DNA of 64,000 bases from an uncultured Acidobacteriota bacterium (GCA_963805975.1 CAWDVR010000003.1:384001-448000), one strand, 5' to 3'; shown: positions 21 to 28,956, counted from the stretch's first letter. Translations and numbers: made by a program. Notes: generated by a model from the sequence alone, not told the origin.

Positions 21-1070
21 GTGCTGTTCTCGAACGCCGGCGGCACGGTGGGCGGCATTCGCACCAATCTCAGCGTCAACAACGGTGGCGGGGTGTACGT
101 AGAGGGCAGCGCCGAGTTCAATACCGGTCTCGCCGAGAGCGGCCCCACCATCATCGACGGCAACACCGCCAACAACGGCGGCGGCGGCGTGTTCGTCACC
201 GGCACCGGCTCGGTGATCCGCCTGTTTTCGGCCAGGACCTCGTTCAATCACGCCGCTGGGGCAGGAGGCGCGTTTTTCGCCGACGATCACGCCGTGGCGG
301 TGGTGGCCCGCCCGGTCAGCGACCCCGACCCCTGTCCGGACCCGATGCGTTGCTCGTTGCTGTTCGCCAACAGTGCCTCGGTGGGTGGCGCCATCTACAG
401 CGACGACCAGGCCCAGGTGAACGTCCACGGCACTACTATCGAGAGCAACAGCTCCACCGTGTTCAATCCAGTGGCGAGCGTGCGGGGCGGCTCGCTGGTC
501 ACCATCCACTCGAGCGTCGTCGCCGGCAACAGCGGCTCCGAGCCCTTCCTGGTTTCCGACGCCGCGAGCTCGCTGGTGCTCGGCAACGTCACGGTGGCCA
601 ACAACATCAACATCGGCGACGGGATGATCGAGGTGGTCACCGGCACGGTGGGGCCGGTGCGCGTCCTGACCAGCGTCTTCCAGCAGGCCGGTCCGCTCTT
701 CGTGCCGGGTTTCCCCGCCGCGATCACTCCGCAGGTCGATTGTGTGATGAGCTCGAACGGGGGCCTCTTCATCGGCATGCCCGCCGGCACGGTGATCCGC
801 TCGATCGTCGTCGCCGATCCGCAGCTCGCCAACCCGGCGGCCGGCAACTTCCAACTGCGCGGCACCTCGCCGGCGATCGACGCCTGCGACACCACGCAAT
901 GGAACGGCGGCTCCCAGGACATCGACTGGCAGGCCCGGGACATCGACAACCCCGACCACTCGAACCCCCTGCCGGGCTTCCGCGACCTAGGTGCCGACGA
1001 GTATCTGTGGATCTTCGCCGACGGCTTCGAGTCCGGAAACACCAATCGCTGGGATGTGGTGGTGCAGTAG
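21..1070 (+). CDS. Secreted beta-helix / polymorphic-repeat protein with choice-of-anchor Q-like C-terminus; 5' end lies outside the window
   Basis: Repeated GGGVYV/NTANNGGG/GGAIY motifs, DPQL...FQLRGTSPAIDA...DLGADE tail, ends IFADGFESGNTNRWDVVVQ. Confidence 0.75.
   Translation: MLFSNAGGTVGGIRTNLSVNNGGGVYVEGSAEFNTGLAESGPTIIDGNTANNGGGGVFVTGTGSVIRLFSARTSFNHAAGAGGAFFADDHAVAVVARPVSDPDPCPDPMRCSLLFANSASVGGAIYSDDQAQVNVHGTTIESNSSTVFNPVASVRGGSLVTIHSSVVAGNSGSEPFLVSDAASSLVLGNVTVANNINIGDGMIEVVTGTVGPVRVLTSVFQQAGPLFVPGFPAAITPQVDCVMSSNGGLFIGMPAGTVIRSIVVADPQLANPAAGNFQLRGTSPAIDACDTTQWNGGSQDIDWQARDIDNPDHSNPLPGFRDLGADEYLWIFADGFESGNTNRWDVVVQ
1011..1070 (+). other. C-terminal F-x-DGFE-x-G motif, copy 1
   Basis: Encodes IFADGFESGNTNRWDVVVQ-stop. 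Confidence 0.8.
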
Positions 1071-1110
1071 GGGGGCAGAGGGCGTCCGCTCCAGGCGGCT
1101 GGTATCCGGA

Positions 1111-1136
1111 TGGACCCCCGCTTTCGCGGGGGTGAC
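1111..1136. repeat. REP-like palindrome, possibly also a terminator between convergent genes
   Basis: TGGACCCCCGC-TTTC-GCGGGGGTGAC; 8-bp perfect stem 1114-1121/1126-1133; reverse complement is of the GTCA-CCCCGCGAAAGCGGGGGTCCA type. Confidence 0.7.
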
Positions 1137-1168
1137 GACGGGAGAGGTGCGCAGGCGCCGCCCGGCGT

Positions 1169-3613
1169 TCAATCCTCCTTCAGCGCCACCACCGGATCGA
1201 CCTGGGCCGCCTTGACAGAGGGCGCCAGGCAGGCGACGAGGCCGACCGCGGCCAGGAGGAGCGAGGCGGCCGCGAAGATGCCGGGGTCCGAGGGCTGGAC
1301 CTCGTAGAGCAGGCTCGCCAGCAGCCGGTTGGCGGCGAAGGCGCCGGCCACGCCCAGCACCATGCCGGCGAGGATCAGCCGCCCGCCTTGCCAGAGCACC
1401 AGGCTGGCGACGCTGCCGGGCGCCGCGCCCAGGGCCGAGCGGATGCCGATCTCCCGCGTGCGCAGGCTGACGGCGTAGGCGATGACGCCGTAGATCCCCA
1501 CCGCCGAGAGCAGCAGCGCCACGCCGGCGAAGATCGCCAGCAGCAGCATCGGCGCTCGCCGGGTGGCGAGCGAGTCGGAGAGCCGCGTCGCCATGGTCTT
1601 GACATCGAAGAGCGGCAGCTCCGGGTCGAGGCGCAGGATCTCCCGGCGGATGCCGCCGGTGAGGAGCGCCGGATCGCCCGAGGTGCGCGCCACCAGCGCG
1701 AGCTGGCCGGCCGGCCGCTGGCGCAGCGGGAAGTAGACCGTGCCTACCGTGTCGGGGTCGGTCAGATCCATCGAGCGGATGGCGGAGACCACGCCGACGA
1801 TGGTCCTCCAGGGCCGGTCCTCGTTGTCCTGTGCGATGCCGGTGCGCAGTCGCCCGCCGAGAGCGTCGCCCTTGGGGAAATAGCGCTCGGCGAGCTGCTG
1901 GTCGATGATCGCCACCAACTGCGCGTCCGGGGTGTCCGTGGCTTCGAAGTTGCGGCCGGCGATCTTGCGGATGCCGAGCGTGTCGAAGAAGCCGGCATCG
2001 ACCTCGCTGAAGTGCGGCACCGGCGGTGTCTCGCCCGGGCCCGGCGTGTAGCTCTCGAATGAGATCGCGCTGGCGTTGCTGCTGTTGCTGAAGGGGAGGA
2101 AGGTGGTGAGGCCCACCGCCTCGACCCCCGGCAGCGAGCGCACGCGGGCGGAGGCTGAATCGATGAAGGCCACGGTCGCGGCGTCGTCCGCGTAGCGCGC
2201 CTCGGGCAGGTTGATGAGCGCCGAGAGCACGCCCCGCGACTCGAACCCCGGCGTCACCCCCGCGACCTTGCGGAAGGACATCAGGAGCAGGCTCGCCAGC
2301 ACCAGCAGCACGAAGGCGAACGAGAACTGGAGCACCACCAGGCTCGAGCGGGTGAGCGAGGCCGTGCGGCCCCCGGTGCCCGTGCGCCCGCCCTCGCGGA
2401 ATGCCTGGGCGGGGTTCGCCCGCAGGGCCTGGAAGACGGGGATCAGGCCGAAGAGCAGGCCGGTGCCGAGCGCCACCAGGAAAGTGAAGGCGAGCACGCT
2501 CCAGTCGATCGCGATGTCCGACCCGCGGGGGAGCTGCTCGGCCGCGAAACGCGCCAGGAGGCGCGAGGCCGCCCAGCCCACCGCCAGCCCGAGCGCCCCG
2601 CCGGCGCCGGCCAGCGCCAGGCTCTCGACCAGCAGGGCACGCGTCACCCGGCCCCGGCCGGCGCCCAGCGCGAAGCGCACGGCGAGCTCTTTCCGCCGCC
2701 GGTGCGCCCGCACCAGCATCAGGTTGGCGACGTTGACGCAGCCGATGGCGAGCACCAGTGCCACGCCGCCCTGCACCAGCACGAGCTGCGGGCGCACGCT
2801 GCGCACCGTCTCCTCGTGCAGGCTGATCACCCGCGTCCAGAAGCCGGCGCTCGCCAGCACCTCGCGGAACTGCGGATGGGCGTCGGTGATGCGCTGGTTC
2901 AGGGCGTTGATGCGTTCCTGCGCCCGGGCCACGGTCACCCCCGGCTGGAGGCGGGCCAGCATGTTGAACGAGTTGCTGTGCCGGGAGTCGTCCGACATCT
3001 GCTCGGGCGTGAAGGCGAAGGGCATCAAGAGCCGGATGTCGTCATCCACGAGCTCGAAATCGTGCGACATCACGCCCACGATCTGGTGGCTCACGCCGTT
3101 GATCCGGATGTCCTTGCCCACCACGTTCGGGTCGCCGGCGAACTGCTTCTGCCACAGCGTGTGGGTGAGGAGGGCCACCTTCTCGTTGCCGAGCTTGGCG
3201 TCCTCCTCGGTGAAGGGGCGGCCGAGCACCGGCTGCACGCGCAGGAGGGGGAAGAGGGTGGGAGTGACGCGGGCCGAGACCACCCGTTCCGGCGAGCCCT
3301 CGGCGCCGACGTTGGCGCTCGAGAAATCGAGCAGCGCCACACTCTCGAAGACCTCGGTCTCCGCCTTGCGGTCGAAGTAGTCGGGTGCGGCGTTGGCGCC
3401 GCGGTCCGTCACGCCGACCTTGGGGTAGAGGTTGTAGAGGGTCACCAGGCGGTCGGGATCGGCATAGGGCAGCGGTTCGAGCAGCACCGCGTTGATGACG
3501 CTGAAGATGGCGGTGTTGGCGCCGATGGCGAGCGCCAGGGTGAGGAGCACGACGAAGGTGAACGACCGCTCGCGGGCTAGGGCGGCGACGGCGTGTTTCA
3601 GGTCTTTCAGCAT
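1169..3613 (-). CDS. ADOP-type ABC transporter permease (duplicated MacB_PCD/FtsX)
   Basis: Starts MLKDLKHAV; TLALAIGANTAIFS, CVNVANLML, RTREIGIRSALGA, DPVVALKED; the ORF-track extension to 4477 overlaps an opposite-strand gene. Confidence 0.92.
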   Translation of the reverse strand: MLKDLKHAVAALARERSFTFVVLLTLALAIGANTAIFSVINAVLLEPLPYADPDRLVTLYNLYPKVGVTDRGANAAPDYFDRKAETEVFESVALLDFSSANVGAEGSPERVVSARVTPTLFPLLRVQPVLGRPFTEEDAKLGNEKVALLTHTLWQKQFAGDPNVVGKDIRINGVSHQIVGVMSHDFELVDDDIRLLMPFAFTPEQMSDDSRHSNSFNMLARLQPGVTVARAQERINALNQRITDAHPQFREVLASAGFWTRVISLHEETVRSVRPQLVLVQGGVALVLAIGCVNVANLMLVRAHRRRKELAVRFALGAGRGRVTRALLVESLALAGAGGALGLAVGWAASRLLARFAAEQLPRGSDIAIDWSVLAFTFLVALGTGLLFGLIPVFQALRANPAQAFREGGRTGTGGRTASLTRSSLVVLQFSFAFVLLVLASLLLMSFRKVAGVTPGFESRGVLSALINLPEARYADDAATVAFIDSASARVRSLPGVEAVGLTTFLPFSNSSNASAISFESYTPGPGETPPVPHFSEVDAGFFDTLGIRKIAGRNFEATDTPDAQLVAIIDQQLAERYFPKGDALGGRLRTGIAQDNEDRPWRTIVGVVSAIRSMDLTDPDTVGTVYFPLRQRPAGQLALVARTSGDPALLTGGIRREILRLDPELPLFDVKTMATRLSDSLATRRAPMLLLAIFAGVALLLSAVGIYGVIAYAVSLRTREIGIRSALGAAPGSVASLVLWQGGRLILAGMVLGVAGAFAANRLLASLLYEVQPSDPGIFAAASLLLAAVGLVACLAPSVKAAQVDPVVALKED

Positions 3614-3719
3614 GGGGTGGCTCCCGGCCGCGGAGGGCCTGTCCCCTTCTGAAACGTGGCCGGCCCGCCCTTTGTTGCAGGGCCGGCCTGCTAAGCTCGC
3701 CCAAACCCCGAGACCTGCC

Positions 3720-4661
3720 GTGCGCCGACCGCGAATCCCCAGATCGTCGCTACCGGGCGACTCCCCACAGATCAGGCGGCGGCAGCGCCTGGCGGGGATC
3801 GGCTGCATGGGCCTCTTCCTCCTGGGGGTGTTTGCGGTCGAGAAGGGGAAAGAGCTCTTCCGGGACACTCCCCTCGCTCCCGACTCGCGGGGGATGGAGG
3901 AGATCCTCCAGGACGACGACCTCGAGGCGCTCGAGAAGCGGCTCAGCAACGGTGCCGACCCCAACGCCAAGGACGTCTTCGACCAGGCGTTGATCACCTG
4001 GGTGAGGAGCCCCAAGGCCCTGGAGATCATGCTCCGCCACGGCGCCGACCCGCAGGGCCGCGACAAGGACGGCGACACGCCGCTGATGGAGGCGGCGCGG
4101 GCGGGAGACGTGGAGTCGGTCCGGGTGCTGCTCGCCGCCGGAGCCGATGTCAACGCCGTCAACCCCGAGTACGGCTCCGAGCACACGGCGATGATCGACG
4201 CCATCTCGGGCGGCGACGGGGAGGTTCTCCGTCTTTTCAAGGCGGCCGGAGCCGTGGACACGCGGGTCACCGCCGAGAACGGCCAGCCCCTGCCGGCGGA
4301 CGGCGGCGAGCCGTTCCGGGTCTGCGTGGAATACATCGCCGCCATCCATCGCCAGGACCCGGACGCGATGTATCCGCTCACCGTCTGGCCCGAGCCCATC
4401 GATTCCTCCGGGACCGACTGGAACACGCTCCAGAGCGTGCGCCCCGTTGCGCCTCGCTTCCTCGGCGGCTTCTTCAACGAGACCTACGCCACGCTCACAC
4501 TCTCCGGCGAGACCCCGGCCGGTTTCGAGGCGGAGTGGCGGTACCAGCTCCGCCGCCTCCGCGCCGAGCAGGAGCCTCTGCTGCCCGAAGGCAAGACCCG
4601 GATCGAACCGCACACCACCGGCCTGTGGCGCATCGTGCGGGAGGACTGGCTGGTGGATTGA
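3720..4661 (+). CDS. Ankyrin-repeat protein with N-terminal membrane anchor (start uncertain: GTG 3720 or ATG 3807)
   Basis: GADPNAKD, GADPQGRDKDGDTPLMEAA, LLAAGADVNA repeats. Confidence 0.8.
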   Translation: MRRPRIPRSSLPGDSPQIRRRQRLAGIGCMGLFLLGVFAVEKGKELFRDTPLAPDSRGMEEILQDDDLEALEKRLSNGADPNAKDVFDQALITWVRSPKALEIMLRHGADPQGRDKDGDTPLMEAARAGDVESVRVLLAAGADVNAVNPEYGSEHTAMIDAISGGDGEVLRLFKAAGAVDTRVTAENGQPLPADGGEPFRVCVEYIAAIHRQDPDAMYPLTVWPEPIDSSGTDWNTLQSVRPVAPRFLGGFFNETYATLTLSGETPAGFEAEWRYQLRRLRAEQEPLLPEGKTRIEPHTTGLWRIVREDWLVD

Positions 4662-4698
4662 GAGACACGAGCATGTTCCCCGGCTCTCGCCATCCCCT

Positions 4699-5955
4699 CT
4701 AGACCAACAGCCGCTCCAGCGGCACCGCCCAGATGTTTCTCTCTAGCTGCTGGATGCTGGGTCCGGTATAGACCACGATCCCTCCGCGCCACTGCTCCCC
4801 GAGCGCTTTGCCGACTTCTCTCATGCTTCTCCAGCCCGAAGGCGAGAGCTTGGCGCCCAGCTTGGCCTCGAAGGTCCACGTTCCGTAAGGAGTGGTGGCC
4901 ATTAGATCGACCTCCAAGCCCGAGCGTGTGCGGTAGAAGGCGAGATCGACCGGCAGGTCGTGAGTCTTCGCCCACTTGAAGACCTCAGTGACGACCAGCG
5001 TCTCGAAGAGCTGCCCGGTGGCCGGTCCGCGGTTGTGGGTCAGGTGGCGCCACAGGGCCGTGTCCAGCCAGAAGATCTTGGGCGTCTTGATCACGCTGCT
5101 GGTGAGATTCTTGGCATAGGGCGGCAGGAGCACCGCCTGGTAGGAGAGCCGCAGGTACTCGATGTAACGCCTCGCCGTGGTGACGCTCAGGCCGGAGTCG
5201 CGGGCCAGTTCCGAGAACGACAGTAACTGGCCGCTGCGTGCCGCGCCGAGCTGCTGGAAGCCTCGGAAGGGCAGCAGGTCGGAGAGCCGAGTCAGGTCGG
5301 CGAGGTCACGCTCCAGGTAGGTGGCGTCGTACGACTGGAGCCACTTGCTGCGTTCCTCGTCGGAGAGCGGAAGGAGGCCCGGCATCCCTCCCCAGGCCAA
5401 CAAATGCTCGATCGCATCGGCGGCCCGCTCCGCCAGGGGACCCAGGCGCACCTCCGGCTCCTTGCCGAGGTGTTCCTCCGCGGAGCCGGGCTCGCGCAAC
5501 AGGCGGTCCAAGAGTGGCTGCGGCGCCTCCGAGCCGGCCTCAGTGGCGAGCTCGCTCGCCAGAAGCGGCCAGAGCTCGTAGACGAAGGCCCGGCCGGCCA
5601 GGGTCTCGCGCACCCTCTGCAGCATCAGGATCTGCGACGAGCCCAGGAGGATCGTCTCCCTGATCTCGCCGGCATCGAAGGCGTACTTCACCTTGTCGAA
5701 GAGGCTGGGCTCTTTCTGGGCTTCGTCCAGGATCGCGGGGCCGATGGCCTCGGCCCAGGACTCTGCTCGCGCGACTCGGAGAGTCTCACGCTGCGCTGGC
5801 GAATCCAGGTTGACGTAGCGGAAGCCGGGGAAGACGGCCCGCGCAAGAGTCGTCTTCCCCGTCTGACGGGCGCCGGTCAGGAGGGTCAGCCGGGGTGGCG
5901 AAACACGCTGGAGAACTGGCCCCAGCCAACGGAAACGCTGTATATTCGTTCTCAT
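4699..5955 (-). CDS. AAA+ ATPase (AAA_14 + DUF4143 family)
   Basis: Walker A GARQTGKT, Walker B ILDEAQ, GGMP, TYLERD, KTPKIFWLDTAL, LFET, YRTRSGLEVD. Confidence 0.9.
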   Translation of the reverse strand: MRTNIQRFRWLGPVLQRVSPPRLTLLTGARQTGKTTLARAVFPGFRYVNLDSPAQRETLRVARAESWAEAIGPAILDEAQKEPSLFDKVKYAFDAGEIRETILLGSSQILMLQRVRETLAGRAFVYELWPLLASELATEAGSEAPQPLLDRLLREPGSAEEHLGKEPEVRLGPLAERAADAIEHLLAWGGMPGLLPLSDEERSKWLQSYDATYLERDLADLTRLSDLLPFRGFQQLGAARSGQLLSFSELARDSGLSVTTARRYIEYLRLSYQAVLLPPYAKNLTSSVIKTPKIFWLDTALWRHLTHNRGPATGQLFETLVVTEVFKWAKTHDLPVDLAFYRTRSGLEVDLMATTPYGTWTFEAKLGAKLSPSGWRSMREVGKALGEQWRGGIVVYTGPSIQQLERNIWAVPLERLLV

Positions 5956-6028
5956 GGTGGGTAAATATACAGCCTATTTGTCCACGTCGTGAACAGATTT
6001 ACAGGTTATTTAGGCTCTCCGGGGAGAC

Positions 6029-7006
6029 TCAGCGCGTCCCGACCGGCCCCATCCACCGCCCGAGCACCGGCAGGTCACGAAGGGCCTGGCGCCACTCCGG
6101 TGCTGGTGGGCTGAAGGGCGAGGGCAGGAAGAACAGGGCGAGCCAGAGGGGGTTCTGGGGGAACCCGACTCCCATCGTCAGGTGGGTGGAGACGTGCAGG
6201 AGGATGAGGCCGAGGCCCCAGGCCCGGTGCAGCGAGGGCCGAGCCGCCGCCCACAGCGCGAAGAGCTCCAGGTAGAGAGCGCCGATCATCAATGGCCAGC
6301 CCACCCAGTAGTGCTCGATCAGCCACAGGCCGAGGACGCTCGTGGAATCGTCCGAGAGAAGCTTGGCGGCGACCTGCCGCGCGAGCGCCGTGGGCGCGAC
6401 GTAGGAGACCTCACCCTGGAGCGCCTGCTGGACCACCCCGCCCACTTTCCACACGCCGGACATACTGTACGTGAGCATGATGAGCGCCTGACAGCCGGAG
6501 AACACCAGCAGGGTCGCAGCTCGCACCGGCCGGCCGGGCGCCGGGCTCGACGCCCAGCCGCGGGGAAGGAAGATCAGCACGAAGCTCAACAGCAGGCCCA
6601 GGTGGTCGCCGTGATTGACGCTGCCGAAGGAGAACCGGAAGGCCAGGAGCTCGAGCAGCGAGCAGAACACCAGGATGCGTGCCCATCGGTGGCCGGAGAG
6701 CGCCACCCCGAGCAGGCCGCCCAGCAGGTGGAACCACAGAATCAGCGCGATCCCGGAGCGAAGGTCCACGTAGCGCAGCCAGAAGACGGGCCAGCGAGGG
6801 CTGAGACTCGTGGTGGCGAGGAGCTCCTGCCAGGAGAAGAGCTGGTTCAGAGCGAGAAACAGCAGCACCGCGTAGAACGCCGTAACCAGGGCCTGGCCAC
6901 GGAAGAAGCTCTCCCGGCGCAAGAAGACGGACCCGCTCGTGGCTGGGCCGGCGGCCCGCGACCGGAAGAAGGCCACGAGGGCCTCAGCGCGGCCCCTATC
7001 TCTCAT
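6029..7006 (-). CDS. Multi-pass membrane protein, HTTM/SdpB-like
   Basis: Several TM helices; SFGSVNHGDH, YSMSGVWK, LYLEL, LLHVSTHLTMGVGF resemble HTTM motifs. Confidence 0.6.
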   Translation of the reverse strand: MRDRGRAEALVAFFRSRAAGPATSGSVFLRRESFFRGQALVTAFYAVLLFLALNQLFSWQELLATTSLSPRWPVFWLRYVDLRSGIALILWFHLLGGLLGVALSGHRWARILVFCSLLELLAFRFSFGSVNHGDHLGLLLSFVLIFLPRGWASSPAPGRPVRAATLLVFSGCQALIMLTYSMSGVWKVGGVVQQALQGEVSYVAPTALARQVAAKLLSDDSTSVLGLWLIEHYWVGWPLMIGALYLELFALWAAARPSLHRAWGLGLILLHVSTHLTMGVGFPQNPLWLALFFLPSPFSPPAPEWRQALRDLPVLGRWMGPVGTR

Positions 7007-7494: not shown

Positions 7495-7610
7495 CGTCCT
7501 GTTGTTCAGGGTCTCAGGCTACCATCGTGCAACGCTGGAAAGGCCCTCGAGGCACCCGTCGGATAAGCTCCGAGCCCGATGCTCAGGCCCCCGTGCAAGG
7601 CTGTTCGGCC

Positions 7611-9404: not shown

Positions 9405-9456
9405 TCTACTATCGTGGGTCTGGCAGCCTGGATCGACCCATGAAAGGCGGGAAGCG

Positions 9457-10937: not shown

Positions 10938-10963
10938 GCTTCCATGGTTGCAAGGAGCCACGG

Positions 10964-12658
<1,695 letters not shown>

Positions 12659-12668
12659 GGCGATCGGC

Positions 12669-15728: not shown

Positions 15729-17270
15729 ATGCCCCCTGCCCGCTACGCCTGCCGCTTCGCTTCCACCGCCCTACTTCTGAGTCTCGGGCTCGCCTCGCCG
15801 GCCGCTGCCGGCACGCTCGCCGTAACCTCCACCACCCCGGCACGGAACGCCGGCAACGTCACCACTTCGACCACCATCGTCGTCCACTTCAACATGGCCC
15901 TGCAGACCGCTTCGATCACCTCCTCGAGCTTCCGCGCCTGGGGCAAGTGGAGCGGTCCCAGAACCGGCGCCTTCGCCTTCTCGAACGGCAACCAGACGCT
16001 GACTTTCACCCCCAGCCGCCCGTTCTCGGCCGGTGAGGCGGTGTACTTCCTGCTCGCCAACACCGTCACCGCCGCCGACAGCTCGCCATTCCGGGCCGGC
16101 GGCTACGCCTCGCAGTTCACCACCGCGGTCGTCGTGACGCCGGCCGACTTCCAGGAGATCGACACCATCTCGGTGCGCACCACTCCCGGAGAAGGTACGC
16201 GCCTCTATGGCGGCAGCGGCGCCGACCTCGACAACGACGGCTGGCTCGACTACGTGGGCGCCAACGAGGACAGCGGCGACCTCCGGGTGCTGATGAACCG
16301 CGACGACGGCAGCGGGCTCTACCACCCCTTCCTGCAGCCCCCCACCGAGACCGACCTGGGCCCCAGCCCGAACGAGGTCGCCGACTACGACAACGACGGT
16401 TTCCAGGACGTGGCGACGGCCAACTACATCCCCTCGACGGTCTCCGTGGTCCTGGGCGACGGCGACGGCACCTTCAGCCTCCAGCAGTCGGTGTCGGTGG
16501 CCAATACCCCGCACGGCCTCGCCACCCTGGACGTGGACGGCGACGGCGACCTCGACCTCGTCACCGCCAACGAGGCCGCCAACAACCTGTCGCGGCTGCT
16601 CAACAACGGCAGCGGCGTGTTCGGAGCCGCGACCCACTTCGAGGGGGGCGGCGACGGCGAGTACGCGCTCACCGCCGGCGACATGAACAACGACGGCATC
16701 ATGGACCTGGTGCTCGGCACCCGCGACGACCAGCAGATCCACGTCCTGACCGGCAACGGCAACGGCACCTTCTCCCATGCCTCGAACCGCTCGGCGGGCG
16801 GCCTCACCTGGATGGTCGCGGTAGGCGACGTCAACGGCGACGGCCACCTGGACGTGGCCTCCGCCAACAGCCAGAGCAACAACGGCTCGATCCTGCTGGG
16901 CAACGGTAACGGCACCTTGCAGGCGGCGGCGACGATCGCGACCTCCGGCCACATGGTGGCGACGGACCTGGGCGATCTCGACGGCGACGGCGATCTCGAC
17001 TGGGTGCTGTCGTCGTTCGGCGGTGGGCGCTGGCACGTCTACACCAACAACGGCGCCGGCGCCTTCACGCAGGTGGACGAGATCTTCGCCACCAGCAACG
17101 CCTCCTGCGCCACCCTCTACGACTTCGACAACGACGGCGACCTCGACATGGCGCTGGCCGACGAGATTGCGGACGAGGTCAAGCTGATCCAGAACAGCGG
17201 TGGCCCCGGCCTCTTTGCCGACGGCTTCGAGACCGGCGACACCGCGGCCTGGTCACTCACTGTGCCGTAG
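15729..17270 (+). CDS. Secreted FG-GAP/VCBS repeat protein with N-terminal Ig-like domain
   Basis: Signal peptide; DLDNDGWLD, DVDGDGDLD, DMNNDGIMD, DVNGDGHLD repeats; ends LFADGFETGDTAAWSLTVP. Confidence 0.9.
   Translation: MPPARYACRFASTALLLSLGLASPAAAGTLAVTSTTPARNAGNVTTSTTIVVHFNMALQTASITSSSFRAWGKWSGPRTGAFAFSNGNQTLTFTPSRPFSAGEAVYFLLANTVTAADSSPFRAGGYASQFTTAVVVTPADFQEIDTISVRTTPGEGTRLYGGSGADLDNDGWLDYVGANEDSGDLRVLMNRDDGSGLYHPFLQPPTETDLGPSPNEVADYDNDGFQDVATANYIPSTVSVVLGDGDGTFSLQQSVSVANTPHGLATLDVDGDGDLDLVTANEAANNLSRLLNNGSGVFGAATHFEGGGDGEYALTAGDMNNDGIMDLVLGTRDDQQIHVLTGNGNGTFSHASNRSAGGLTWMVAVGDVNGDGHLDVASANSQSNNGSILLGNGNGTLQAAATIATSGHMVATDLGDLDGDGDLDWVLSSFGGGRWHVYTNNGAGAFTQVDEIFATSNASCATLYDFDNDGDLDMALADEIADEVKLIQNSGGPGLFADGFETGDTAAWSLTVP
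17211..17270 (+). other. C-terminal F-x-DGFE-x-G motif, copy 2
   Basis: Encodes LFADGFETGDTAAWSLTVP-stop. Confidence 0.8.
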
Positions 17271-19539: not shown

Positions 19540-19594
19540 TCAGGGTGAGGCTGGGCCTCACCCCGGTTGGACGGACGCGGCAGCGGAGTTTCTC

Positions 19595-20887: not shown

Positions 20888-21038
20888 AAGAATGCCCCCC
20901 GTTCGAGTAACTTGAAAGTATCCGCTCTTAGGCTAGTGCAGGAGCGTCTATTTCGCAACCAAGTGGAGTTTCTGTGAGATCCCCTAGCTACCCACGACGA
21001 GGTAAAGTTGCTCTCTGTCCCTACTCTTGGAGAACCTG

Positions 21039-23282
21039 ATGGCTCGAAGGTCCCTGCTCCTCGCCCTGCCGCTCACTCTCGGTGCTGGCCTGCCCGCCTC
21101 CGCCGCCCTCGAGCCCATGAACCCCGCCCATCTCCCGCTCCTCGCCAAGGTCTCGAGCCCCCACCTGTCGCCGGACGGCCGAGCCGTGGTGTTCAGCTCG
21201 GGGCGCCAGGATCTCGCCTCTGACAGAGAGGTGCAGGAAATCAAGCTGGCCGTGACCAATACCGGCGGAACCTCGACAATCGGGCCGGGCAGCCAGCCCC
21301 GTTTCTCGCCGGACGGCCGGCGGATCGCCTTCGTTTCCGAGAGTGACAGCGGCAAGCCGGCGATCTGGCTCTACGACCTCGAGGCCAAGGAGAGCCGCAA
21401 GCTGGTGGACCTCCATCCGAGCGACCACTTCCTGGGCCACGAGGCGGACGAGGGCTTCGCGTGGTCCCCGCAGGGCGACGCCATCGCGTTTCTGTCCGGC
21501 GAGCCTCCTCCGGCGGAGGGGGAAGGCGAGACGGCGAGCGACGTGAAGGTCATCTCGCGCATCCTCTACAAGACCCGCACCGGCCTCTCGGACGATCGGC
21601 CGACGCACGTCTGGTGGGTGGCGACCGAGGGCGCCGATGCCGGCAAGGCGCGGCTGCTCACTCCGGGCGCGTTCGACGAGCACTCGCTCAGCGTCTCGCC
21701 GGACGGTCGCGAGATCGTCTTCGTGAGCAACCGCTCCGCCGACCCGGACGGTACCTACGTGGACGACCTCTGGGTGGTGGAGGTGGCGACCGGCAAGGTG
21801 CGGCGGCTGACCGACACCGCCGGCACCGAGATGCGGCCGGCGTGGTCGCCGGACGGCTCGCGAATCGCTTACCTCGCCACCCGCCGCAGCGCCAACACCA
21901 AGGACAGCCAGGCGGAGGACCCGCACGTCTTCGCCATGCCGGCCGCCGGCGGCCCGGCCCGCGACCTCTCGGCGCCGCTCGACCGCCGGCCGCAGGCGCT
22001 CCTCTGGCACCCGGACGGCGAGAGCTTGTGGCTGACGATCGACGACCAGGGCCGGCGGCCCGTGCTGCGGCTCCCGGCGCCGCGCACCGCCGGGGCCGCG
22101 GGTTCCGGGGAAGCGGGGAAGGCGCCGGCCGTGCAGCGCTTCACCGAAGGGTTCTTCCAGGCGAGCGAGCTCTCGCTCGACCGTGAAGGCAACACCCTGG
22201 CCTACCTGAAGAGCGAGGTGGCGCGCCCGCCGGAGGTCTTCGTCACCCAGATCCGCTCCCGCCGCACCCACCAGGTCACGCAGGAGAACCGGCCCTTCCT
22301 CCAGCGAGTGGCGGTGCAGGGCGCGGACACCCTCGAAGCGCAGACCGCCGACGGCACCAAAGTCCAGGCGTTTCTGATGAAGCCTGCGGGCTGGCGGTCC
22401 ACGGGCAAGCACCCGCTGGTGCTCTGGGTGCACGGCGGGCCGCACGGCATGGCGGGCTATGGCTTCTCGGAGCGTTTCCAGCTCCTCGCCGGCCGTGGCC
22501 TGGCCGTGCTCGCGGTCAACCCGCGCGGCTCCACCGGCTACGGCCAGGCTTTCGGCGACGCGGCGCTCGCCGATTGGGGTGGCGGCGACTACCAGGACCT
22601 CCTCGCCGCCGTGGACCAGGCGATCCGGGAATACCCGTGGATCGACGGCGAGCGCCTCGGCGTGGCCGGCGGCAGCTACGGCGGCTACATGACGAACTGG
22701 GTCGTCACGCAGACCCGCCGCTTCAAGGCGGCGGCTTCCTTCGCCGGCCTCTCGAACCTGGTGAGCTTCTACGGCACCAGCCTCTACCCGGACCTGATCG
22801 AGGTGGAGTTCGGTGGCAAGCCCTGGGAGGGCGAGAACTTCTACAAACTGTGGCGCCGCTCGCCGCTCGCCTTCGTGGACAAGGTGGAGACCCCGATCCT
22901 CTTCCTGCACGGTGAGAACGACAACGACGTGCCCATCGAGCAGGCGGAGGAGATGTACATGGCGCTCAAGAAGCGCGGCGTCGACACCCTCCTGGTGCGC
23001 TACCCGGGCGAAGGCCATGGTCTCGAGACGCTGCGCCACAGGGCTGACTTCAGCACCCGGCTCCGCGACTGGTTCGGGAAACACCTGGCGGCGGCCGAGC
23101 CGGTGCTGCGGCCGCCGGAGGAGCTCGCGCCGCCGGCTGCCACGCCGCCCCCGGCCGCCACTCCGCCACCGTCGGCCGCGGTGCCCAAGCTGCCCCCGGC
23201 CGTGGACAAGGTCGTGTCCCTGCCGGCCCGAGCACCCGCCAGCGCACCGCCGGTGCTCGAGCGGAAGCCGCCGTCTCACTGA
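21039..23282 (+). CDS. S9 family (prolyl oligopeptidase-like) peptidase with PD40 beta-propeller
   Basis: Signal peptide, SPDG repeats, HGGP, GGSYGGY, HGEND, EGHG; Pro/Ala-rich tail. Confidence 0.93.
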   Translation: MARRSLLLALPLTLGAGLPASAALEPMNPAHLPLLAKVSSPHLSPDGRAVVFSSGRQDLASDREVQEIKLAVTNTGGTSTIGPGSQPRFSPDGRRIAFVSESDSGKPAIWLYDLEAKESRKLVDLHPSDHFLGHEADEGFAWSPQGDAIAFLSGEPPPAEGEGETASDVKVISRILYKTRTGLSDDRPTHVWWVATEGADAGKARLLTPGAFDEHSLSVSPDGREIVFVSNRSADPDGTYVDDLWVVEVATGKVRRLTDTAGTEMRPAWSPDGSRIAYLATRRSANTKDSQAEDPHVFAMPAAGGPARDLSAPLDRRPQALLWHPDGESLWLTIDDQGRRPVLRLPAPRTAGAAGSGEAGKAPAVQRFTEGFFQASELSLDREGNTLAYLKSEVARPPEVFVTQIRSRRTHQVTQENRPFLQRVAVQGADTLEAQTADGTKVQAFLMKPAGWRSTGKHPLVLWVHGGPHGMAGYGFSERFQLLAGRGLAVLAVNPRGSTGYGQAFGDAALADWGGGDYQDLLAAVDQAIREYPWIDGERLGVAGGSYGGYMTNWVVTQTRRFKAAASFAGLSNLVSFYGTSLYPDLIEVEFGGKPWEGENFYKLWRRSPLAFVDKVETPILFLHGENDNDVPIEQAEEMYMALKKRGVDTLLVRYPGEGHGLETLRHRADFSTRLRDWFGKHLAAAEPVLRPPEELAPPAATPPPAATPPPSAAVPKLPPAVDKVVSLPARAPASAPPVLERKPPSH

Positions 23283-23298
23283 CTCGGAGGATTCGACG

Positions 23299-24186
23299 AT
23301 GAGCCTGTCCACTCTGGCCCGCAAGCCCGGCGAGCGGTTCGACCTTGCCGAGATCGATCCCCGCTCGACGCCGGGCATCCGGGGCAAGGCGGCCGCGGAG
23401 CAGGAGAGAGCGCGCCTGCTCGAGCGGCTGACGCTCCTTCAGCAGCGGCTCTACGCCGGGGGCGAGCACGCCTTGCTGGTGGTGCTCCAGGGCATGGACG
23501 CGAGCGGCAAGGACGGCGTCATCCGCCACCTGGGCGGCGCCTTCGGCCCGCAGGGAACCGTGGTCACGGCGTTCAAGGTGCCGACGCCCGAGGAGCTGTC
23601 CCACGACTTCCTGTGGCGGGTTCACCGGGCGGTGCCGGGCAAGGGCAAGATCGGGATCTTCAACCGCTCGCAGTACGAGGACGTGGGCGTGGTGCGGGTC
23701 AAGAACCTGGTGCCCGAGGCGGTGTGGGGCAAGCGCTACGACGCGATCAATCGCTTCGAGCGCCTGTTGGCCGACAACGCGGTCACGATCGTCAAGCTCT
23801 TCCTCCACATCAGCCCCCAGGAGCAGGCCGAGCGCCAGCGCGACCGTCAGCGGGACCCGGAGGAGCGCTGGAAGTTCAATCCCGACGACCTCGGCGACCG
23901 CAAGCTGTGGCCGGAGTTCATGGCGGCGTACGGCGAGGCGCTGACCCGCTGCAACACCGCCTGGGCGCCGTGGCACGTGATCCCCGCCGATCGCAAGTGG
24001 TACCGCAACTGGGCGATCTCCCAGCTTCTGGTCGCGACCCTGGAGGACCTGAAGCTCGACTACCCGCCGGCGCCGGACGACATCGAGAGCCACGAGATCC
24101 CCGAGGTCAAGTGGCCTCCTCGCCGCCGCGCACCCAAGCGGGCACCGGCCGCTTCTCGAAGCGGTCGAGGTCGAGGCAAACGGTGA
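23299..24186 (+). CDS. Polyphosphate kinase 2 family protein (class III-like)
   Basis: LQGMDASGKDG, HDFLWR, FNRSQYEDV, WKF, PADRKWYRN; GGAGG RBS. Confidence 0.93.
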   Translation: MSLSTLARKPGERFDLAEIDPRSTPGIRGKAAAEQERARLLERLTLLQQRLYAGGEHALLVVLQGMDASGKDGVIRHLGGAFGPQGTVVTAFKVPTPEELSHDFLWRVHRAVPGKGKIGIFNRSQYEDVGVVRVKNLVPEAVWGKRYDAINRFERLLADNAVTIVKLFLHISPQEQAERQRDRQRDPEERWKFNPDDLGDRKLWPEFMAAYGEALTRCNTAWAPWHVIPADRKWYRNWAISQLLVATLEDLKLDYPPAPDDIESHEIPEVKWPPRRRAPKRAPAASRSGRGRGKR

Positions 24187-24514
24187 CCACCCGTGCCCCG
24201 GCGACCGGCTCCTCCTCGCCGCGCTTGAAGAAGGTGAAGCGGAAAGTGAGCGACGAGGCGCCGACGCTTTCGATGACGACCTCGATCTCGATCGCGTCGC
24301 CGTAGCGCAGGGGGCGGCGGAAGTCGACCTCGACCCGGACGGCCGGGAAGCCCAGCCGTTCCTCGGCCAGGAGCCGCGGGTACGGCACCCCCAGCGCCCC
24401 GGCGAAGAACTCCTCCATCGCCACGTGGCAGTAGTGCAGATACCGCGGGTAGTAGACGATCCCCGCGGAGTCCACGTCGCCGAAGCACAGGGTGTGGTGC
24501 GAGCGGAAGGGCAC
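24107..24514 (-). CDS. Acyl-CoA thioesterase (4HBT/YbgC hot-dog fold)
   Basis: FGDVDSAGIVYYPRY, DFRRPLRYGD. Confidence 0.9.
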   Translation of the reverse strand: MPFRSHHTLCFGDVDSAGIVYYPRYLHYCHVAMEEFFAGALGVPYPRLLAEERLGFPAVRVEVDFRRPLRYGDAIEIEVVIESVGASSLTFRFTFFKRGEEEPVAGARVVTVCLDLDRFEKRPVPAWVRGGEEAT

Positions 24515-24519
24515 GGAGA

Positions 24520-25428
24520 TCAGCCGTCGAGCCGGCGCCGGCTCTCGATCTCGATTCGTTCACCGCTCACCGGGTCGCGGAAGGCGAGGCACCGGGCGAG
24601 GAGGAGGAGCGGCTTGGCGAAGTCCGGCGGCGCCTCGGGCGCGAGATCAGGGTAGTAGCGATCGCCCTCGATGGGGAAGCCCAGCCCGGCCATGTGCAGC
24701 CGGAGCTGGTGCTTCTTGCCGGTCGCGGGCCGGAGGCGGAAGAGGCCGCGGCCCGCGCGCCACTCGAGGAGCGCGATCTGCGTCCTGGCGTTGGACGGAC
24801 CCGGCTCCTCGCGCATGCGAAACCAGGGCTCACCGGCCACCAGCCGGTTCTCGACCCACCACTCCTCGGCCTCCGGTCGCTCGGCGACCCGCGCCACCGC
24901 GAGGTACTCCTTCTCGACCTCGCCGCGCTCGAACAGGCCCTGGTAGAGGCCGCGGGCCTCCTGTCGCTTGGTGAAGAGCACCAGGCCGGAGGTGTCGCGG
25001 TCCAGGCGATGGGCCGGTGCCAGGGTGGCGCAGCCGTTCGCCTGCTGGAGACGGAAGAGCAGGCACTCGTTGACGTAGGGGCCGGCGGGCACCACGGGAA
25101 GAAACGGCGGCTTGTCGGCGACCAGGAAGTCGTCCGTTTCGAGCAGCACCTCGGCGGTGAACGGCACCGGCGGCTCGGCCTCCACCTCACGGAAGTAGGC
25201 GAGGCAAAGGCCGGGCGGGAGCGGCGTCTCCAAACCCACCGCCTCCCCGTCCGCGGCGCGCACCCGGCCGGCCTCGATGCGCTGGCGCCAGCTCTCTCGC
25301 CCGATCCGTGGAAAGCGGGCGGCGAGGAAGTCGAGGGCACGAGGTGGCGGCGTGCCCGGCGCCCCCGGCACGGTGACGAACGAGGGCCGGGGCGCCCGGC
25401 TCCGTGTCCGGCTCAGGCCGCCGGCCAC
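24520..25428 (-). CDS. RluA-family pseudouridine synthase (start uncertain)
   Basis: ADKPPFLP, HRLDRDTSGL, TGKKHQLRLH, GDRYY. Confidence 0.9.
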   Translation of the reverse strand: MAGGLSRTRSRAPRPSFVTVPGAPGTPPPRALDFLAARFPRIGRESWRQRIEAGRVRAADGEAVGLETPLPPGLCLAYFREVEAEPPVPFTAEVLLETDDFLVADKPPFLPVVPAGPYVNECLLFRLQQANGCATLAPAHRLDRDTSGLVLFTKRQEARGLYQGLFERGEVEKEYLAVARVAERPEAEEWWVENRLVAGEPWFRMREEPGPSNARTQIALLEWRAGRGLFRLRPATGKKHQLRLHMAGLGFPIEGDRYYPDLAPEAPPDFAKPLLLLARCLAFRDPVSGERIEIESRRRLDG

Positions 25429-25979
25429 AGCCAACCGAAGATCCCCGCCATCAGGAGCCCGTACACTATGCCGTCGAAGATCTCCTTCAGGATGCTCGAC
25501 CAGCTCCGGCCGAACCAGATCGCGAAGGTCGGCAGCGCCCCGGCCCAGGCGAGAATGCCGGCCGTGCCCACCACCTGGAAGACCCGCAGGTACTCGGCGC
25601 CGGCGGGCACGGTGCGGCTCGCCAGGTAGGCGACGAGGAGCGAGACGATGCCGCAGTGCAGGAGGTAGAGCACCATGCTCTGGCCCATGTTGGCGCCGCC
25701 GGCCGGGAAGAGCACCAGCATGCCGGCGGGCCCTTCCTTCATCTTGCGCTGGATCTCCGGGTCCTTCATCGACTTGGAGTCTGCGCAATGGGGGAACGTG
25801 AACTGCCCGGGCCGCGAAGCGTTCTGCTGCTTCAGCTGGGCGATGAGGGCGTCCTCGTTGGGCAGCTTCTTCCAGTCGGGACGATGGTGCGGGAGCACCA
25901 TCCAGAACACGAAGCCGGCGAACCACAGGACCACGGCGGAGACGACGATCGGCAACCACAGAGCGGACAAAGAGACCAT
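25413..25979 (-). CDS. Conserved 4-TM membrane protein
   Basis: MVSLSALWLPIVVSAV, WMVLPHH, PGQFTFP; AAGGAGG RBS. Confidence 0.7.
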   Translation of the reverse strand: MVSLSALWLPIVVSAVVLWFAGFVFWMVLPHHRPDWKKLPNEDALIAQLKQQNASRPGQFTFPHCADSKSMKDPEIQRKMKEGPAGMLVLFPAGGANMGQSMVLYLLHCGIVSLLVAYLASRTVPAGAEYLRVFQVVGTAGILAWAGALPTFAIWFGRSWSSILKEIFDGIVYGLLMAGIFGWLWPAA

Positions 25980-26222
25980 GAGTCCCTCCTTCGGGTGGAA
26001 GCTTCCCCGGCGTTGCCGGGAAAGGCCGTTGACCAGGCTTGAGGCTGGCAGGATCCTAGCCCGTTTTCGCCATCGCGTGGCGCCGGTCACGCTCCCGCCT
26101 CCCGCTTCCCGGGTGACGCCGGCGCCACACGGCGCTGCTGGGGGTCTTCCTTTTCACCGGCTGGAGCAAGGTCACGGGGTCGTTGCTATCGTTGCGGGTC
26201 TACCGCAGCCGGATCTGACCCG

Positions 26223-26475
26223 ATGCCACTCTCCGCCGCCGATCTCGACCACCTCCTCGCCGCCGCCCTCGCTGCTGCGCGGCGGGCCGGCGCCATCCAG
26301 CGCCAGTATTTCCGCGCGCCTGGCCTCACGGTGGAGCACAAGGCCGACACCTCGCCGGTGACGGTGGCGGACCGACGGAGCGAGGAGGCGATCCGCGAGA
26401 CGCTCCGCCGCGCCACGCCCGAGCTCGGCCTCTGTGGCGAGGAGCACCCGCCCGAGAGCGACGCGCGCGACCGCT
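26223..26475 (+). pseudogene. Truncated inositol monophosphatase / histidinol-phosphatase (N-terminal third only)
   Basis: KADTSPVTVADRRSEEAIR...GEE present; DPIDGT and the remainder absent. Confidence 0.8.
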
Positions 26476-26784
26476 GTGGTCCGCATCGCGCCCGGTGGGG
26501 TATTTCATGAAGAGATCGGACTTCGAGACCGCCCATGTCTCGGGATTCACCTCCTGGCCGAAGAGGTGGATCTCGGCGCCGCTGTTGAGGACGGGCCGCA
26601 GCAGATCGCCGTTCTTCCTCAAGCCGGCGGTGATGTGCTCCTTGGCGATCATCAGCATGCCGCCGGAGCCGCAGCACGGGTGATACACCGTGAAGACGGC
26701 GCCACGGCGGCGCATGCGCTCATCGGCCCCTGCGAGCATCAGGTCCACCATCAGGTGAACGACGTCACGCAGCGTGAAGTGCTC
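26476..26784 (-). pseudogene. Internal fragment of a type I restriction-modification M subunit (HsdM)
   Basis: EHFTLRDVVHLMV, VYHPCCGSGGML (motif I, normally DP), LFGQEVNPETWAVSKSDL; no own start, no NPPY/F motif. Confidence 0.85.
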
Positions 26785-27761
26785 TCGAGGGCCGCCGTGG
26801 CGAACCGCCGCACGATCTCGCCGGCGGGCTCGATCGCGTGGATGCCTGCGACGCTCTTGCCGGCTTGGAGGTAGTCCCGGTAGGAGAACTTGCGGCGCAG
26901 CGACTTCTTGAGCTTCCAGAAGGATTGCAGCGTGTAGAAGGTGCGCATCCAGTGCTTGGTGCGCCGGCCCTTGAGCAGGAAGCGGCCGAGGGGCCCGGCC
27001 TTGGTGCCCGCCTGCTCGATGTAGGGCGTGCGGATCACGGACACGGGAACGCCGGTCATGCGCTCGGTGAGCACGATGTCCTCCTCGCCGGCGGCGAGGA
27101 TCGCCTGCTTGTAGTCCTCGTGCGCCGAGCACTCGGTGGTGGCGATGAAGCGGGTGCCCATCTGCACGCCGGCATATCCCATCTGGAGCGCGCGGACGAA
27201 GTCCTCCTCGGTGCCGATGCCGCCGGCGCACACCACCGGCACGCCCAGGGGCTCGAGCTCCGCCAGCAGGACCTCGGCGCTCCGCGGCCCGGCGTGGCCC
27301 CCGGCGCGGTTGTTGACGGCGATCAGGCCGTCCGCGCCCTCGACCAGGCCCTTCTCCGCCCACTTGCGCTCGGTGACGTCGTGGAACACCAGGCCGCCTG
27401 CGGCGTGGGCCTTCTCGACCACCCAGCGCGGGTTGCCGAGCGAGGTGATGAAGAAGCGCACGCCCTCCTCGATCGCCAGGTCCACGTAGTGCTGCATGCG
27501 CTCCTGGTAGACCTTGGACGACTTCTCGACGATCACGTTCATGCCCACCGGCTTCGAAGTACGGCGGCGGATCTCGGCCATGCCCTCCTTGAAGTCCCAG
27601 CCGTGCACGTAGACCAGCGACAGGGGTTGCACCACGCCGATCCCCCCGGCTTCGGACGCGGCGGCCACCAGTTCGGGGTTCGAGGCCGGGTACATGGGGC
27701 CGCAGATGAGCGGCACCTCGATGCCGAGCTTCTCGGTCAGGGGTGTCTCTAGGAGCGACAT
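26751..27761 (-). CDS. Nitronate monooxygenase / FabK-like flavoenzyme
   Basis: PLICGPM, AGGHAG, VCAGGIG, GVQMGTRFIAT.E. Confidence 0.9.
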   Translation of the reverse strand: MSLLETPLTEKLGIEVPLICGPMYPASNPELVAAASEAGGIGVVQPLSLVYVHGWDFKEGMAEIRRRTSKPVGMNVIVEKSSKVYQERMQHYVDLAIEEGVRFFITSLGNPRWVVEKAHAAGGLVFHDVTERKWAEKGLVEGADGLIAVNNRAGGHAGPRSAEVLLAELEPLGVPVVCAGGIGTEEDFVRALQMGYAGVQMGTRFIATTECSAHEDYKQAILAAGEEDIVLTERMTGVPVSVIRTPYIEQAGTKAGPLGRFLLKGRRTKHWMRTFYTLQSFWKLKKSLRRKFSYRDYLQAGKSVAGIHAIEPAGEIVRRFATAALESTSRCVTSFT

Positions 27762-27831
27762 GAAGGAGGGCAGAGCTCGCGGACGGTGGCTCATTCTATG
27801 CCACCCGGGAACTGATACCCTGCCTGCCCGC

Positions 27832-28890
27832 ATGCTCCCGCAAGGCCGATCCCGCTGGCTCGTCCTCCTACCCGGCCTCGGTGCCGCGCTCGCCGTGGCG
27901 CTCGCCGCGCGCCTCGTCCACGGCCTGCTGCCGGCGGCGCTCGCCGCACCGCTGGGCGAGGTGGTGCTGGCGGTGCTCCTGGGGCTCGTCGCGGGCAACC
28001 TGCTGCCGCTGCCGGCCGCGCTCGAGCCCGGCCTGCGCTTCGGATTCGGCACGGTGCTGCGCCTGGCCATCGTGCTCCTGGGGGCGCGGCTCTCGTTCCT
28101 CACCGTGGTGGCGATCGGCGGCAAGGCGCTCGCGATGATCGCCGTGCTGATGACCCTGGCGCTGGTACTGGCGCACCACGTGGGGCGCCTCCTGGGGGTG
28201 GCGCCCAGGCTGGCCGCGCTGATCGGCGTCGGCACGGCGGTGTGCGGCAACACGGCGATCTCCGCCACCGCGCCGGTGATCGAGGCGCGGGACGAGGAGG
28301 TGTCCTTCGCCATCGCCACCAACACGCTCCTGGGCACGCTGGCGGTGTTCTGCTATCCGCTCCTGGGCCGCGCCCTGGGCTTCTCGGATGCGGCCTACGG
28401 CACCTGGGCGGGCCTGGCGGTCAACGACACCTCGCAGGTGGTGGCGGCGGGCTTCGCCTTCAGCACGGCGGCGGGGGAGGTGGCGACCGCGGTGAAGCTC
28501 ACCCGCAACGCCCTGATGGGAGTCGTGATCGTGCTCATGGGCTTCCTCTACGGGCCACGCGAGGGCGCCGGCCCTGCTGTGAGCTTCGGCGCGCGGCTCC
28601 GCCAGTCCGTGCCAGTCTTCGTCTACGGCTTCCTGGGCATGGCCCTGCTGAATACGCTGGGAGCATTCGACGCCGCCTCGACGGTGCTCCGCTTCGACCT
28701 CTCGGCCGCGCTCGCGGCGTGCGCCCGGTTCCTGATCCTGGTCGCGCTGGCCGCAGTGGGGCTCGCCACCCGCCTCGCCGCCCTGCGGCGGACCGGCGTC
28801 CGGCCCTTCTACCTGGGCTTGATGGTGGCCGCCGCCACCTCGGCCACGAGCCTGCTGCTGATCCGCTGGCTCGGCCCGGCGGGCGGGTAG
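27832..28890 (+). CDS. YeiH / putative sulfate exporter family membrane protein
   Basis: LRLAIVLLG, GTAVCGNTAI, AVNDTSQV, VKLTRN. Confidence 0.9.
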   Translation: MLPQGRSRWLVLLPGLGAALAVALAARLVHGLLPAALAAPLGEVVLAVLLGLVAGNLLPLPAALEPGLRFGFGTVLRLAIVLLGARLSFLTVVAIGGKALAMIAVLMTLALVLAHHVGRLLGVAPRLAALIGVGTAVCGNTAISATAPVIEARDEEVSFAIATNTLLGTLAVFCYPLLGRALGFSDAAYGTWAGLAVNDTSQVVAAGFAFSTAAGEVATAVKLTRNALMGVVIVLMGFLYGPREGAGPAVSFGARLRQSVPVFVYGFLGMALLNTLGAFDAASTVLRFDLSAALAACARFLILVALAAVGLATRLAALRRTGVRPFYLGLMVAAATSATSLLLIRWLGPAGG

Positions 28891-28896
28891 AAGGCG

Positions 28897-28956
28897 CTAC
28901 GGCACCACGCTCGTCCACGCCGAGGTGTCCCCGCTCTCGAAGCCGTCGGTGAAGAT
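28897..28956 (-). other. C-terminal F-x-DGFE-x-G motif, copy 3
   Basis: Encodes IFTDGFESGDTSAWTSVVP-stop. Confidence 0.8.

Follow-up and report, generated by a model that had tools for sequence, protein, structure and literature searches.

A modular C-terminal tag on exported proteins of Acidobacteriota and Lysobacterales, and a strand-less jelly-roll protein as its likely reader

Introduction

What reads a 19-residue ending that three unrelated exported proteins have in common? The question is raised by a stretch of 64,000 nucleotides from an uncultured Acidobacteriota bacterium (GCA_963805975.1 CAWDVR010000003.1:384001-448000; hereafter the window, from whose first letter positions are counted), in which three genes close with the same short peptide, here called the tag. 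An original prediction, made from the window alone, had taken this peptide for a candidate sorting or anchoring signal of one lineage, possibly read by an outer-membrane machinery. We report that the tag recurs at the C termini of dozens of exported proteins of the host, that it appears to correspond to the opening strand of an unnamed jelly-roll domain together with its calcium loop, and that a small soluble protein which has this domain without the first strand (the catcher) is its likely reader.

Results

The tag in the window and across the host genome

All three copies translate as predicted, each giving 19 residues followed by a stop codon. The first, IFADGFESGNTNRWDVVVQ (positions 1011..1070, plus strand; 36.3 bits with the profile described below), ends an exported, probably beta-helical protein whose 3' part lies at 1..1070 (plus strand); the gene starts upstream of the window, and its signal peptide is encoded near G000:C3:383322 (G000 being the host genome). 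The beta-helix call is weakly backed, by a POMP repeat (E 7.9e-4), and a Pfam scan of this protein returned no family. The second copy, LFADGFETGDTAAWSLTVP (17211..17270, plus strand; 41.9 bits), ends an exported protein of 513 residues from its likely ATG (15729..17270, plus strand), in which the expected FG-GAP repeats were recovered (FG-GAP_3, E 6.6e-56) together with Big_5. The third, IFTDGFESGDTSAWTSVVP (28897..28956, minus strand; 41.3 bits), ends an exported protein of 244 residues (28897..29631, minus strand), whose predicted structure is the beta-sandwich that had been supposed; its fold is complete at residues 1-197, without the tag, and the tag is modelled with a predicted local distance difference test score (pLDDT) of 53-61 and no secondary structure. 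A signal peptide is present in all three proteins, including the one whose gene starts before the window, in agreement with the earlier view of them as exported.

The host genome (5.36 Mb, 70% GC) holds 44 matches to the pattern F.[DN][GSD]FE.G in six-frame open reading frames (ORFs), all at most 23 residues from the stop. Among 4112 roughly called proteins there are 42 matches, all within the last 25 residues, a region that makes up 6.7% of the residues of these proteins, and residue-shuffled proteins gave 0-2 matches per replicate (20 replicates); both the abundance of the tag and its C-terminal placement lie far above chance. A profile built from the motif gives 46 matches genome-wide (24-46 bits), every one C-terminal, with a gap from 24.4 to 9.2 bits at the next match. 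A rough rule, whose calls were inspected by eye and which passes 38% of 3354 called proteins, assigns signal peptides to 39 of these 46 carriers; a predominance of internal or cytoplasmic matches, the outcome that the prediction had named as telling against itself, was not seen. Five of the seven carriers without a signal peptide look short or frameshifted and two are unexplained. Tagged ORFs of frameshifted or fragmentary appearance, through assembly error or decay, lie at G000 C1:769385, C2:1222244, C3:303651, C5:644425 and C6:116568.

In the 44 aligned tails two Phe, one Glu and one Trp are invariant. Counted back from the C terminus, the first Phe is residue 18 in 33 of them and is shifted by -1 to +5 residues in the other 11, so that the claim of a constant distance to the stop holds for the three window copies and these 33 tails and fails for the remainder. 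All are polar and lack both a hydrophobic helix and a basic end, and they differ in this, as had been stated, from the LPXTG, PEP-CTERM and GlyGly-CTERM signals. Neither Pfam nor NCBIfam has a family model for the tag: the 44 tails, compared with NCBIfam at E up to 10, gave a single chance-level match (NTTRR-F1, E 0.036), and a PDB sequence search with the tag gave chance-level matches only. Four carriers (G000 C1:1140867, C2:31122, C6:116568 and C6:216767) have a longer tail with two Cys that ends in CPP, perhaps a disulfide-stapled subtype.

Pfam, run on 42 of the 46 carriers, identified unrelated cargo, comprising five subtilases, M14 and trypsin peptidases, two nucleases, a di-haem peroxidase, dehydrogenase and oxidase propellers, FG-GAP, PKD, DUF11, ThuA and CAP proteins, and a Tat-type DUF1501 protein. 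Homologues of the third window protein (120 listed of 311) end in this tag in 22 cases, in a PEP/IPTL-type anchor in 23, in a dockerin-like domain in 58 and otherwise in 17, with model matches for four examples. Its sequence contexts mark the tail as a modular tag borne at the C terminus of exported proteins. In some homologues of the third protein (P0018, P0028, P0030, P0035 and relatives) two other C-terminal domains of ~100-140 residues replace the tag; two examples of these matched no NCBIfam family and are possible unnamed anchors. A viral collection (L352-L368) includes 17 contigs with the motif, 12 with a C-terminal tag, two with intact jelly-roll domains and three with other internal occurrences.

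A jelly-roll domain without its first strand

Since the tail resembles the first strand of calcium-binding jelly rolls, the genome was searched for a domain that lacks this strand, using six short motifs, of which one matched and five gave noise. The match, at G000:C6:244914-245555 (locus L039:9915-10556), outside the window, is a 213-residue signal-peptide protein with a jelly-roll domain devoid of first strand and calcium loop, and it is likely the partner gene of the tags. It is single copy, being the sole match to the domain profile in the genome, and belongs to no family in Pfam or NCBIfam. Because the peptide matches the piece missing from this small protein, it likely plugs many enzymes into a common socket, and this soluble catcher, rather than the outer-membrane machinery first proposed, is the likely reader of the tag.

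Two forms of the domain occur in relatives, one standing alone right after a signal peptide, the other intact within long proteins and preceded by FxDGFE...W. By pattern, this strand lies directly upstream in 234 of 280 domain copies from the best 150 library matches; inspected visually, most of the 46 failing copies have degenerate intact strands or truncated N-termini, or are small standalone catchers (three of them). The family counts 4961 representatives at E up to 0.001. In the 26 Thermoanaerobaculia catchers inspected the start lies after the Trp of the intact domain, and the standalone catchers inspected carry no tag. NCBI labels the catchers of same-order relatives Thermoanaerobaculia (one cluster member, Holophagales), and we infer that the host belongs to the class Thermoanaerobaculia (Acidobacteriota).

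An intact copy is predicted to fold with a pLDDT of 94, the tag sequence forming its first two strands. Its model superposes on the PL20 glucuronan lyase 2zzj (Foldseek E 1.1e-8; Z 19.1, root-mean-square deviation 2.5, 194 residues aligned) and on Cip1, 3zyp (Z 16.6, root-mean-square deviation 2.9, 185 residues aligned). The calcium of Cip1 is coordinated by its N-terminal loop (Phe6-Trp15) through Asp5 and Glu7, by a second loop, and by the last strand through Asp206 (PMC3764139). The corresponding last-strand Asp is invariant in 36 of 36 catchers, and the Glu in 44 of 44 tails. Since the tag matches the N-terminal loop of Cip1 and the catcher Asp is invariant, tag and catcher would share one calcium site. 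The tail is best read as the first strand and calcium loop of the jelly-roll domain, and among the earlier suggestions that of a beta-strand or calcium addition peptide fits best. The counter-case, in which the motif would be an integral strand of an ordinary domain, holds for its ancestry, which is homologous, and not for the present carriers, in which it is detached from that domain.

Neither Pfam nor NCBIfam has a family model for this domain. Polysacc_lyase matches are weak (3 of 25 members, best E 0.003), and an Atlas search returned mostly unnamed clusters, one with Polysacc_lyase-like on 48% of its members. No multi-socket scaffold of tandem strand-less domains was seen among the best 150 library matches, and a search for longer fusions found two proteins, each with an intact domain. 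A standalone unsplit copy is present in G193, a genome with three tag matches.

Co-occurrence of tag and catcher

Of 41 genomes (the host and 40 relatives), 27 have 13 to at least 150 tag matches and 14 have 0-6. The strand-less protein was seen on its own in 25 of the 27 tag-rich genomes against one of the 14 tag-poor ones (G022, whose catcher has an additional N-terminal segment). A single query sequence was run against all 40 relatives and a profile against 21 of them, the remaining 19 being already positive. G021 shows a partial domain match (C236). In a sample of 251 genomes from the phylum, with 13 and 35 candidates scored per genome in its two scans, the five with at least 11 tag matches all have a standalone catcher; 13 others have 1-5 tag matches and 233 have none.

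The tag is not confined to one lineage, as had been assumed. A shorter form, whose last residues are FE, is abundant in Lysobacterales, in a second phylum: the pattern IFADGFE-stop occurs in at least 123 stretches, and the 80 listed are mostly from this order. Five genomes have 11-26 short tags and one standalone catcher homologue each, with none for a reversed-pattern control. If the domain is split between the partners, catchers facing the short tag should keep the Trp strand, and the Lysobacterales catchers do: their signal peptide is followed by a Cys and then the Trp strand, both invariant in 39 of 39 aligned, the Trp aligns with that of the intact domain (probability 99.9), and the FxDGFE strand is found in none of 31. 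The split points are complementary: the Trp strand that is missing from the short tag is present in the catcher. Among 151 Lysobacterales, counted with a strict tag pattern and a profile built from 39 of the scored genomes, whose kinship makes them not independent, a domain match was found in 63 of 68 genomes with at least ten tags (64 after further search), 8 of 9 with 5-9, 17 of 22 with 1-4 and 12 of 52 with none; catcher N-termini were inspected in ~60 of the 100 domain-positive genomes. A small protein ending in LPVxLQxFSVx adjoins the catcher in 13 of 31 Lysobacterales loci (L246-L276, e.g. L248:966-1472 and L251:2180-2644); two such proteins matched no Pfam family, and the ending is possibly a second strand-type tag.

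Anchors and regulators near catcher genes

Catchers fused to S-layer homology (SLH) domains occur in G015 and G025 (E 4.7e-12 and 1.1e-11), and in G015 the next gene encodes a pyruvyl transferase domain, the usual SLH partner. In G035 the catcher is fused to FG-GAP repeats. One Lysobacterales catcher subfamily has a dockerin-like tail in 30 of 30 loci, by a pattern of our own; in 20 of these the next gene encodes a long protein with a membrane helix and basic residues at its C terminus, four such neighbours run off the locus and six were not scored as anchored. IPTL-CTERM matches above cut-off were obtained for 4 of 11 such neighbouring scaffolds.

Directly upstream of the catcher in G010, G026 and G031 lie genes for an extracytoplasmic function (ECF) sigma factor and for an anti-sigma factor that has a membrane helix and closes in a tag-like sequence; for the G010 pair Pfam gave no confirmation. 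Such an anti-sigma gene lies a few kilobases from the catcher in G040, and a sigma gene lies upstream of it in G035. Anti-sigma factors of the zf-HC2 type near the catcher end in one or two tag-like copies after the membrane helix, and their pairs with ECF sigma factors are found at L103:5694-6935, L104:1314-2443, L105:871-2134 and L116:1507-2082.

Complex prediction

When the catcher alignment was modelled with the C-terminal 32 residues of the third window protein, the complex scored 0.53 (0.53, 0.63 and 0.53 in separate runs) as against 0.02 for the best control; the runs agreed in at least 87% of contacts, and the partner pLDDT was at least 64. The score mark applied is reached by 116 of 157 solved pairs and 2 of 215 mismatched pairs, and those at the mark with scores of 0.60 or lower comprise only 18 of the 157 solved pairs and both mismatches. 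The support is weak, and the halves of a split domain can pass such a prediction by likeness to solved structures. We give it little weight; the case rests on sequence anatomy.

Other features of the window and host genome

Four MacB/FtsX duplicated permease genes, three of them in tandem, lie at 1169-3613 and 49275-56729 of the window. Elsewhere the host has a cluster resembling type II secretion system (T2SS) and type IV pilus (T4P) genes, with a secretin carrying a C-terminal cohesin domain (E 2.4e-7; G000 C5:325879-336657, L040), a separate pilin and PilY1-like cluster (C4:204944-217141, L041) and a lipoprotein-like protein with a cohesin domain (C1:1194392-1194955). The only dockerin match of the genome is an untagged GDSL-like protein (C1:1371302-1372465). 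One exosortase is encoded (C1:1502807-1503367), for which about five IPTL-type proteins account.

Discussion

Several points are shown by the sequences themselves: the tail is a module, the domain exists both intact and without its first strand, tag and catcher co-occur, their split points are complementary, and some catchers are fused to anchors. We hold it likely that tag and catcher bind, and probable that the tag adds its strand to the catcher and so completes it, with a calcium common to both, and that the catcher then tethers the cargo to the envelope; that such tethering is the purpose of the system seems to us a reasonable supposition, held with some reserve.

In outline, cargo and catcher would each cross the inner membrane on their own, through Sec or, for at least one protein, Tat, and the tag strand would insert beside the last strand of the catcher, where calcium would bridge the invariant Glu of the tag and the invariant C-terminal Asp of the catcher, as inside Cip1. 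The catcher would be tied down through a fused SLH domain or, in many Lysobacterales, through its dockerin-like tail and the neighbouring membrane-anchored scaffold; the bare catcher of the host would probably be tied through a surface glycan. Dozens of different exported enzymes would in this way plug into one single-copy adaptor, and a tagged anti-sigma factor would sense free catcher and adjust its expression. Taken as a whole, a protease-free display in two phyla, built from one calcium jelly roll split twice, in which the catcher ties up to ~150 secreted enzymes to the envelope via SLH, glycan or an IPTL-CTERM-anchored dockerin-cohesin scaffold and tagged anti-sigma factors count free sockets, has in our judgement slightly better than an even chance of being correct.

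Several observations weigh against this display model. Three profiles failed to reveal a standalone catcher in G018 (135 tag matches, 97% complete), which holds one degenerate intact domain copy, and in G029 (65 tag matches, 89% complete, 850 contigs), and none was found in the tag-rich Lysobacterales G302, G354, G362 and G422. Conversely, twelve Lysobacterales have the domain and no strict-pattern tag; in five of these, two have tails one or two residues longer and three have none in five loci inspected. The tag counts in Acidobacteriota relatives include internal intact domains (both G039 matches and several of those in G021), and the genomes compared are related, with profiles built from some of the genomes scored. 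As to anchoring, Pfam dockerin matches lie below cut-off (6 of 13 catchers scanned), the cohesin match on neighbouring proteins is weak (E 1.6e-3, 1 of 11), and the presence of a glycan-type gene (glycosyltransferase, sulfatase-fold, sulfotransferase, O-antigen ligase, MBOAT or PMT-like) among the catcher neighbours scanned, seen at 13 of 17 Thermoanaerobaculia loci, is a count without background rate. The host catcher, which heads a large polysaccharide cluster, has no anchor domain, and an SLH search of the host genome returned no match.

The bareness of the host catcher and the ratio of ~45 cargoes to one catcher gene would also suit a secretion adaptor or chaperone, which would pair with the tag, hand folded cargo to a T2SS or pilus machine and release it. 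Carriers exported by Sec and Tat are typical folded cargo for such a route, and the cohesin-bearing secretin of the T2SS/T4P-like cluster could serve as a dock for dockerin-tailed catchers; the host catcher, however, has no dockerin for that cohesin, the 17 catcher loci scanned are glycan loci and not secretion clusters, fused SLH domains and the membrane-anchored scaffolds encoded next to catchers are devices for anchoring, and in homologues the tag stands in for known membrane anchors. We regard release by such an adaptor as unlikely. A still less probable alternative, which we doubt strongly, dispenses with the catcher: the tag alone would bind calcium and a surface polymer, or would add a strand to a pilus-tip or outer-membrane protein, the strand-less protein being a by-product. 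The six tag-rich genomes in which no standalone catcher was found would be accommodated, and C-terminal strand addition to PilK is established for PilC/PilY1 (PMC13533445); left unexplained are the co-occurrence and the agreement between the gap in the catcher and the content of the tag, in two phyla and with two cut points. That the tail is a functionless relic of repeated truncation of a C-terminal jelly-roll domain, as the intact copies often found at the C terminus of long proteins and the degenerate copy in G018 might suggest, is very improbable because the tail is conserved (all 44 copies, though borne by unrelated proteins, agree at four positions, and 33 of the 44 also in their distance to the stop) and because a conserved strand-less partner exists.

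If display by tag and catcher is correct, a reader would be named for a tail that ranks, in Thermoanaerobaculia and Lysobacterales, among the most common that have no annotation; the tag would represent a new class of C-terminal signal, independent of membrane helix or protease, and cellulosome-like enzyme display would extend to Gram-negative bacteria, with a role for orphan IPTL-CTERM scaffolds. With a tag of 7-19 residues and a catcher of ~190-230 residues the system is directly testable, and carriers are in culture (Dokdonella fugitiva, Marinicella pacifica, M. litoralis and Pseudofulvimonas gallinarii). The two natural cut points predict cross-reacting and non-cross-reacting tag-catcher pairs, which could yield calcium-switchable affinity tags.

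Comparison with known systems

We found no description of the tag or of a tag-catcher system in the literature, subscription journals and supplements lying outside the search. The tag fits none of the tripartite signals, the C-terminal domain of the type IX secretion system (T9SS), the dockerins or the donor-strand systems that form polymers. With tripartite signals (LPXTG, PEP-CTERM, IPTL-CTERM, GlyGly-CTERM, MYXO-CTERM) it shares a short C-terminal sequence present in multiple copies on exported proteins and exchangeable between homologues, but it has no membrane helix, basic tail or sorting-model match, and no processing protease was identified. The T9SS C-terminal domain is Ig-like and of ~70-80 residues; it was rejected as a candidate for the 19-residue tag, no such Pfam family occurring in 42 carriers and no NCBIfam family in the tails (T9SS genes were not searched).

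In the cellulosome, many enzymes with one calcium-linked C-terminal module dock to a common anchored partner. The proposed system is like cohesin-dockerin pairing (Pfam PF00963 and PF00404) in having many enzymes, one C-terminal module and a common anchored partner, and one catcher subfamily appears dockerin-tailed; however, the tag is a peptide of 7-19 residues predicted to complete the fold of its partner, whereas a dockerin is a folded EF-hand domain, and no dockerin (PF00404) was found in 42 carriers.

Closer in scale is the C-terminal strand of PilC/PilY1 on PilK, likewise a short C-terminal peptide that adds a strand in trans; there one adhesin per pilus meets a pilin acceptor (PMC13533445), whereas here dozens of cargoes would meet a soluble jelly-roll acceptor. 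Cip1 (3zyp) and PL20 (2zzj) share the fold, and the candidate calcium site of tag and catcher would correspond to that of Cip1, with its N-terminal acidic loop and last-strand Asp, but they are single-chain proteins at 12% identity, the sources consulted describing no split form. In archaeal cannulae (CanA, CanX, Hyper2; bioRxiv 10.1101/2024.12.30.630787) a jelly roll is completed in trans by a donor strand, with calcium and non-covalently, much as proposed for tag and catcher. Each cannula subunit is both donor and acceptor and polymerizes, whereas here the two lie in separate genes, with the C-terminal donor on dozens of unrelated proteins; the catchers are untagged, the sole domain match in the host is the catcher, and an acceptor without a donor is not expected to form a polymer. 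What tag and catcher share with donor-strand systems in general, chaperone-usher pili as well as cannulae, is their complementarity, an acceptor that lacks one strand and a donor peptide that matches it.

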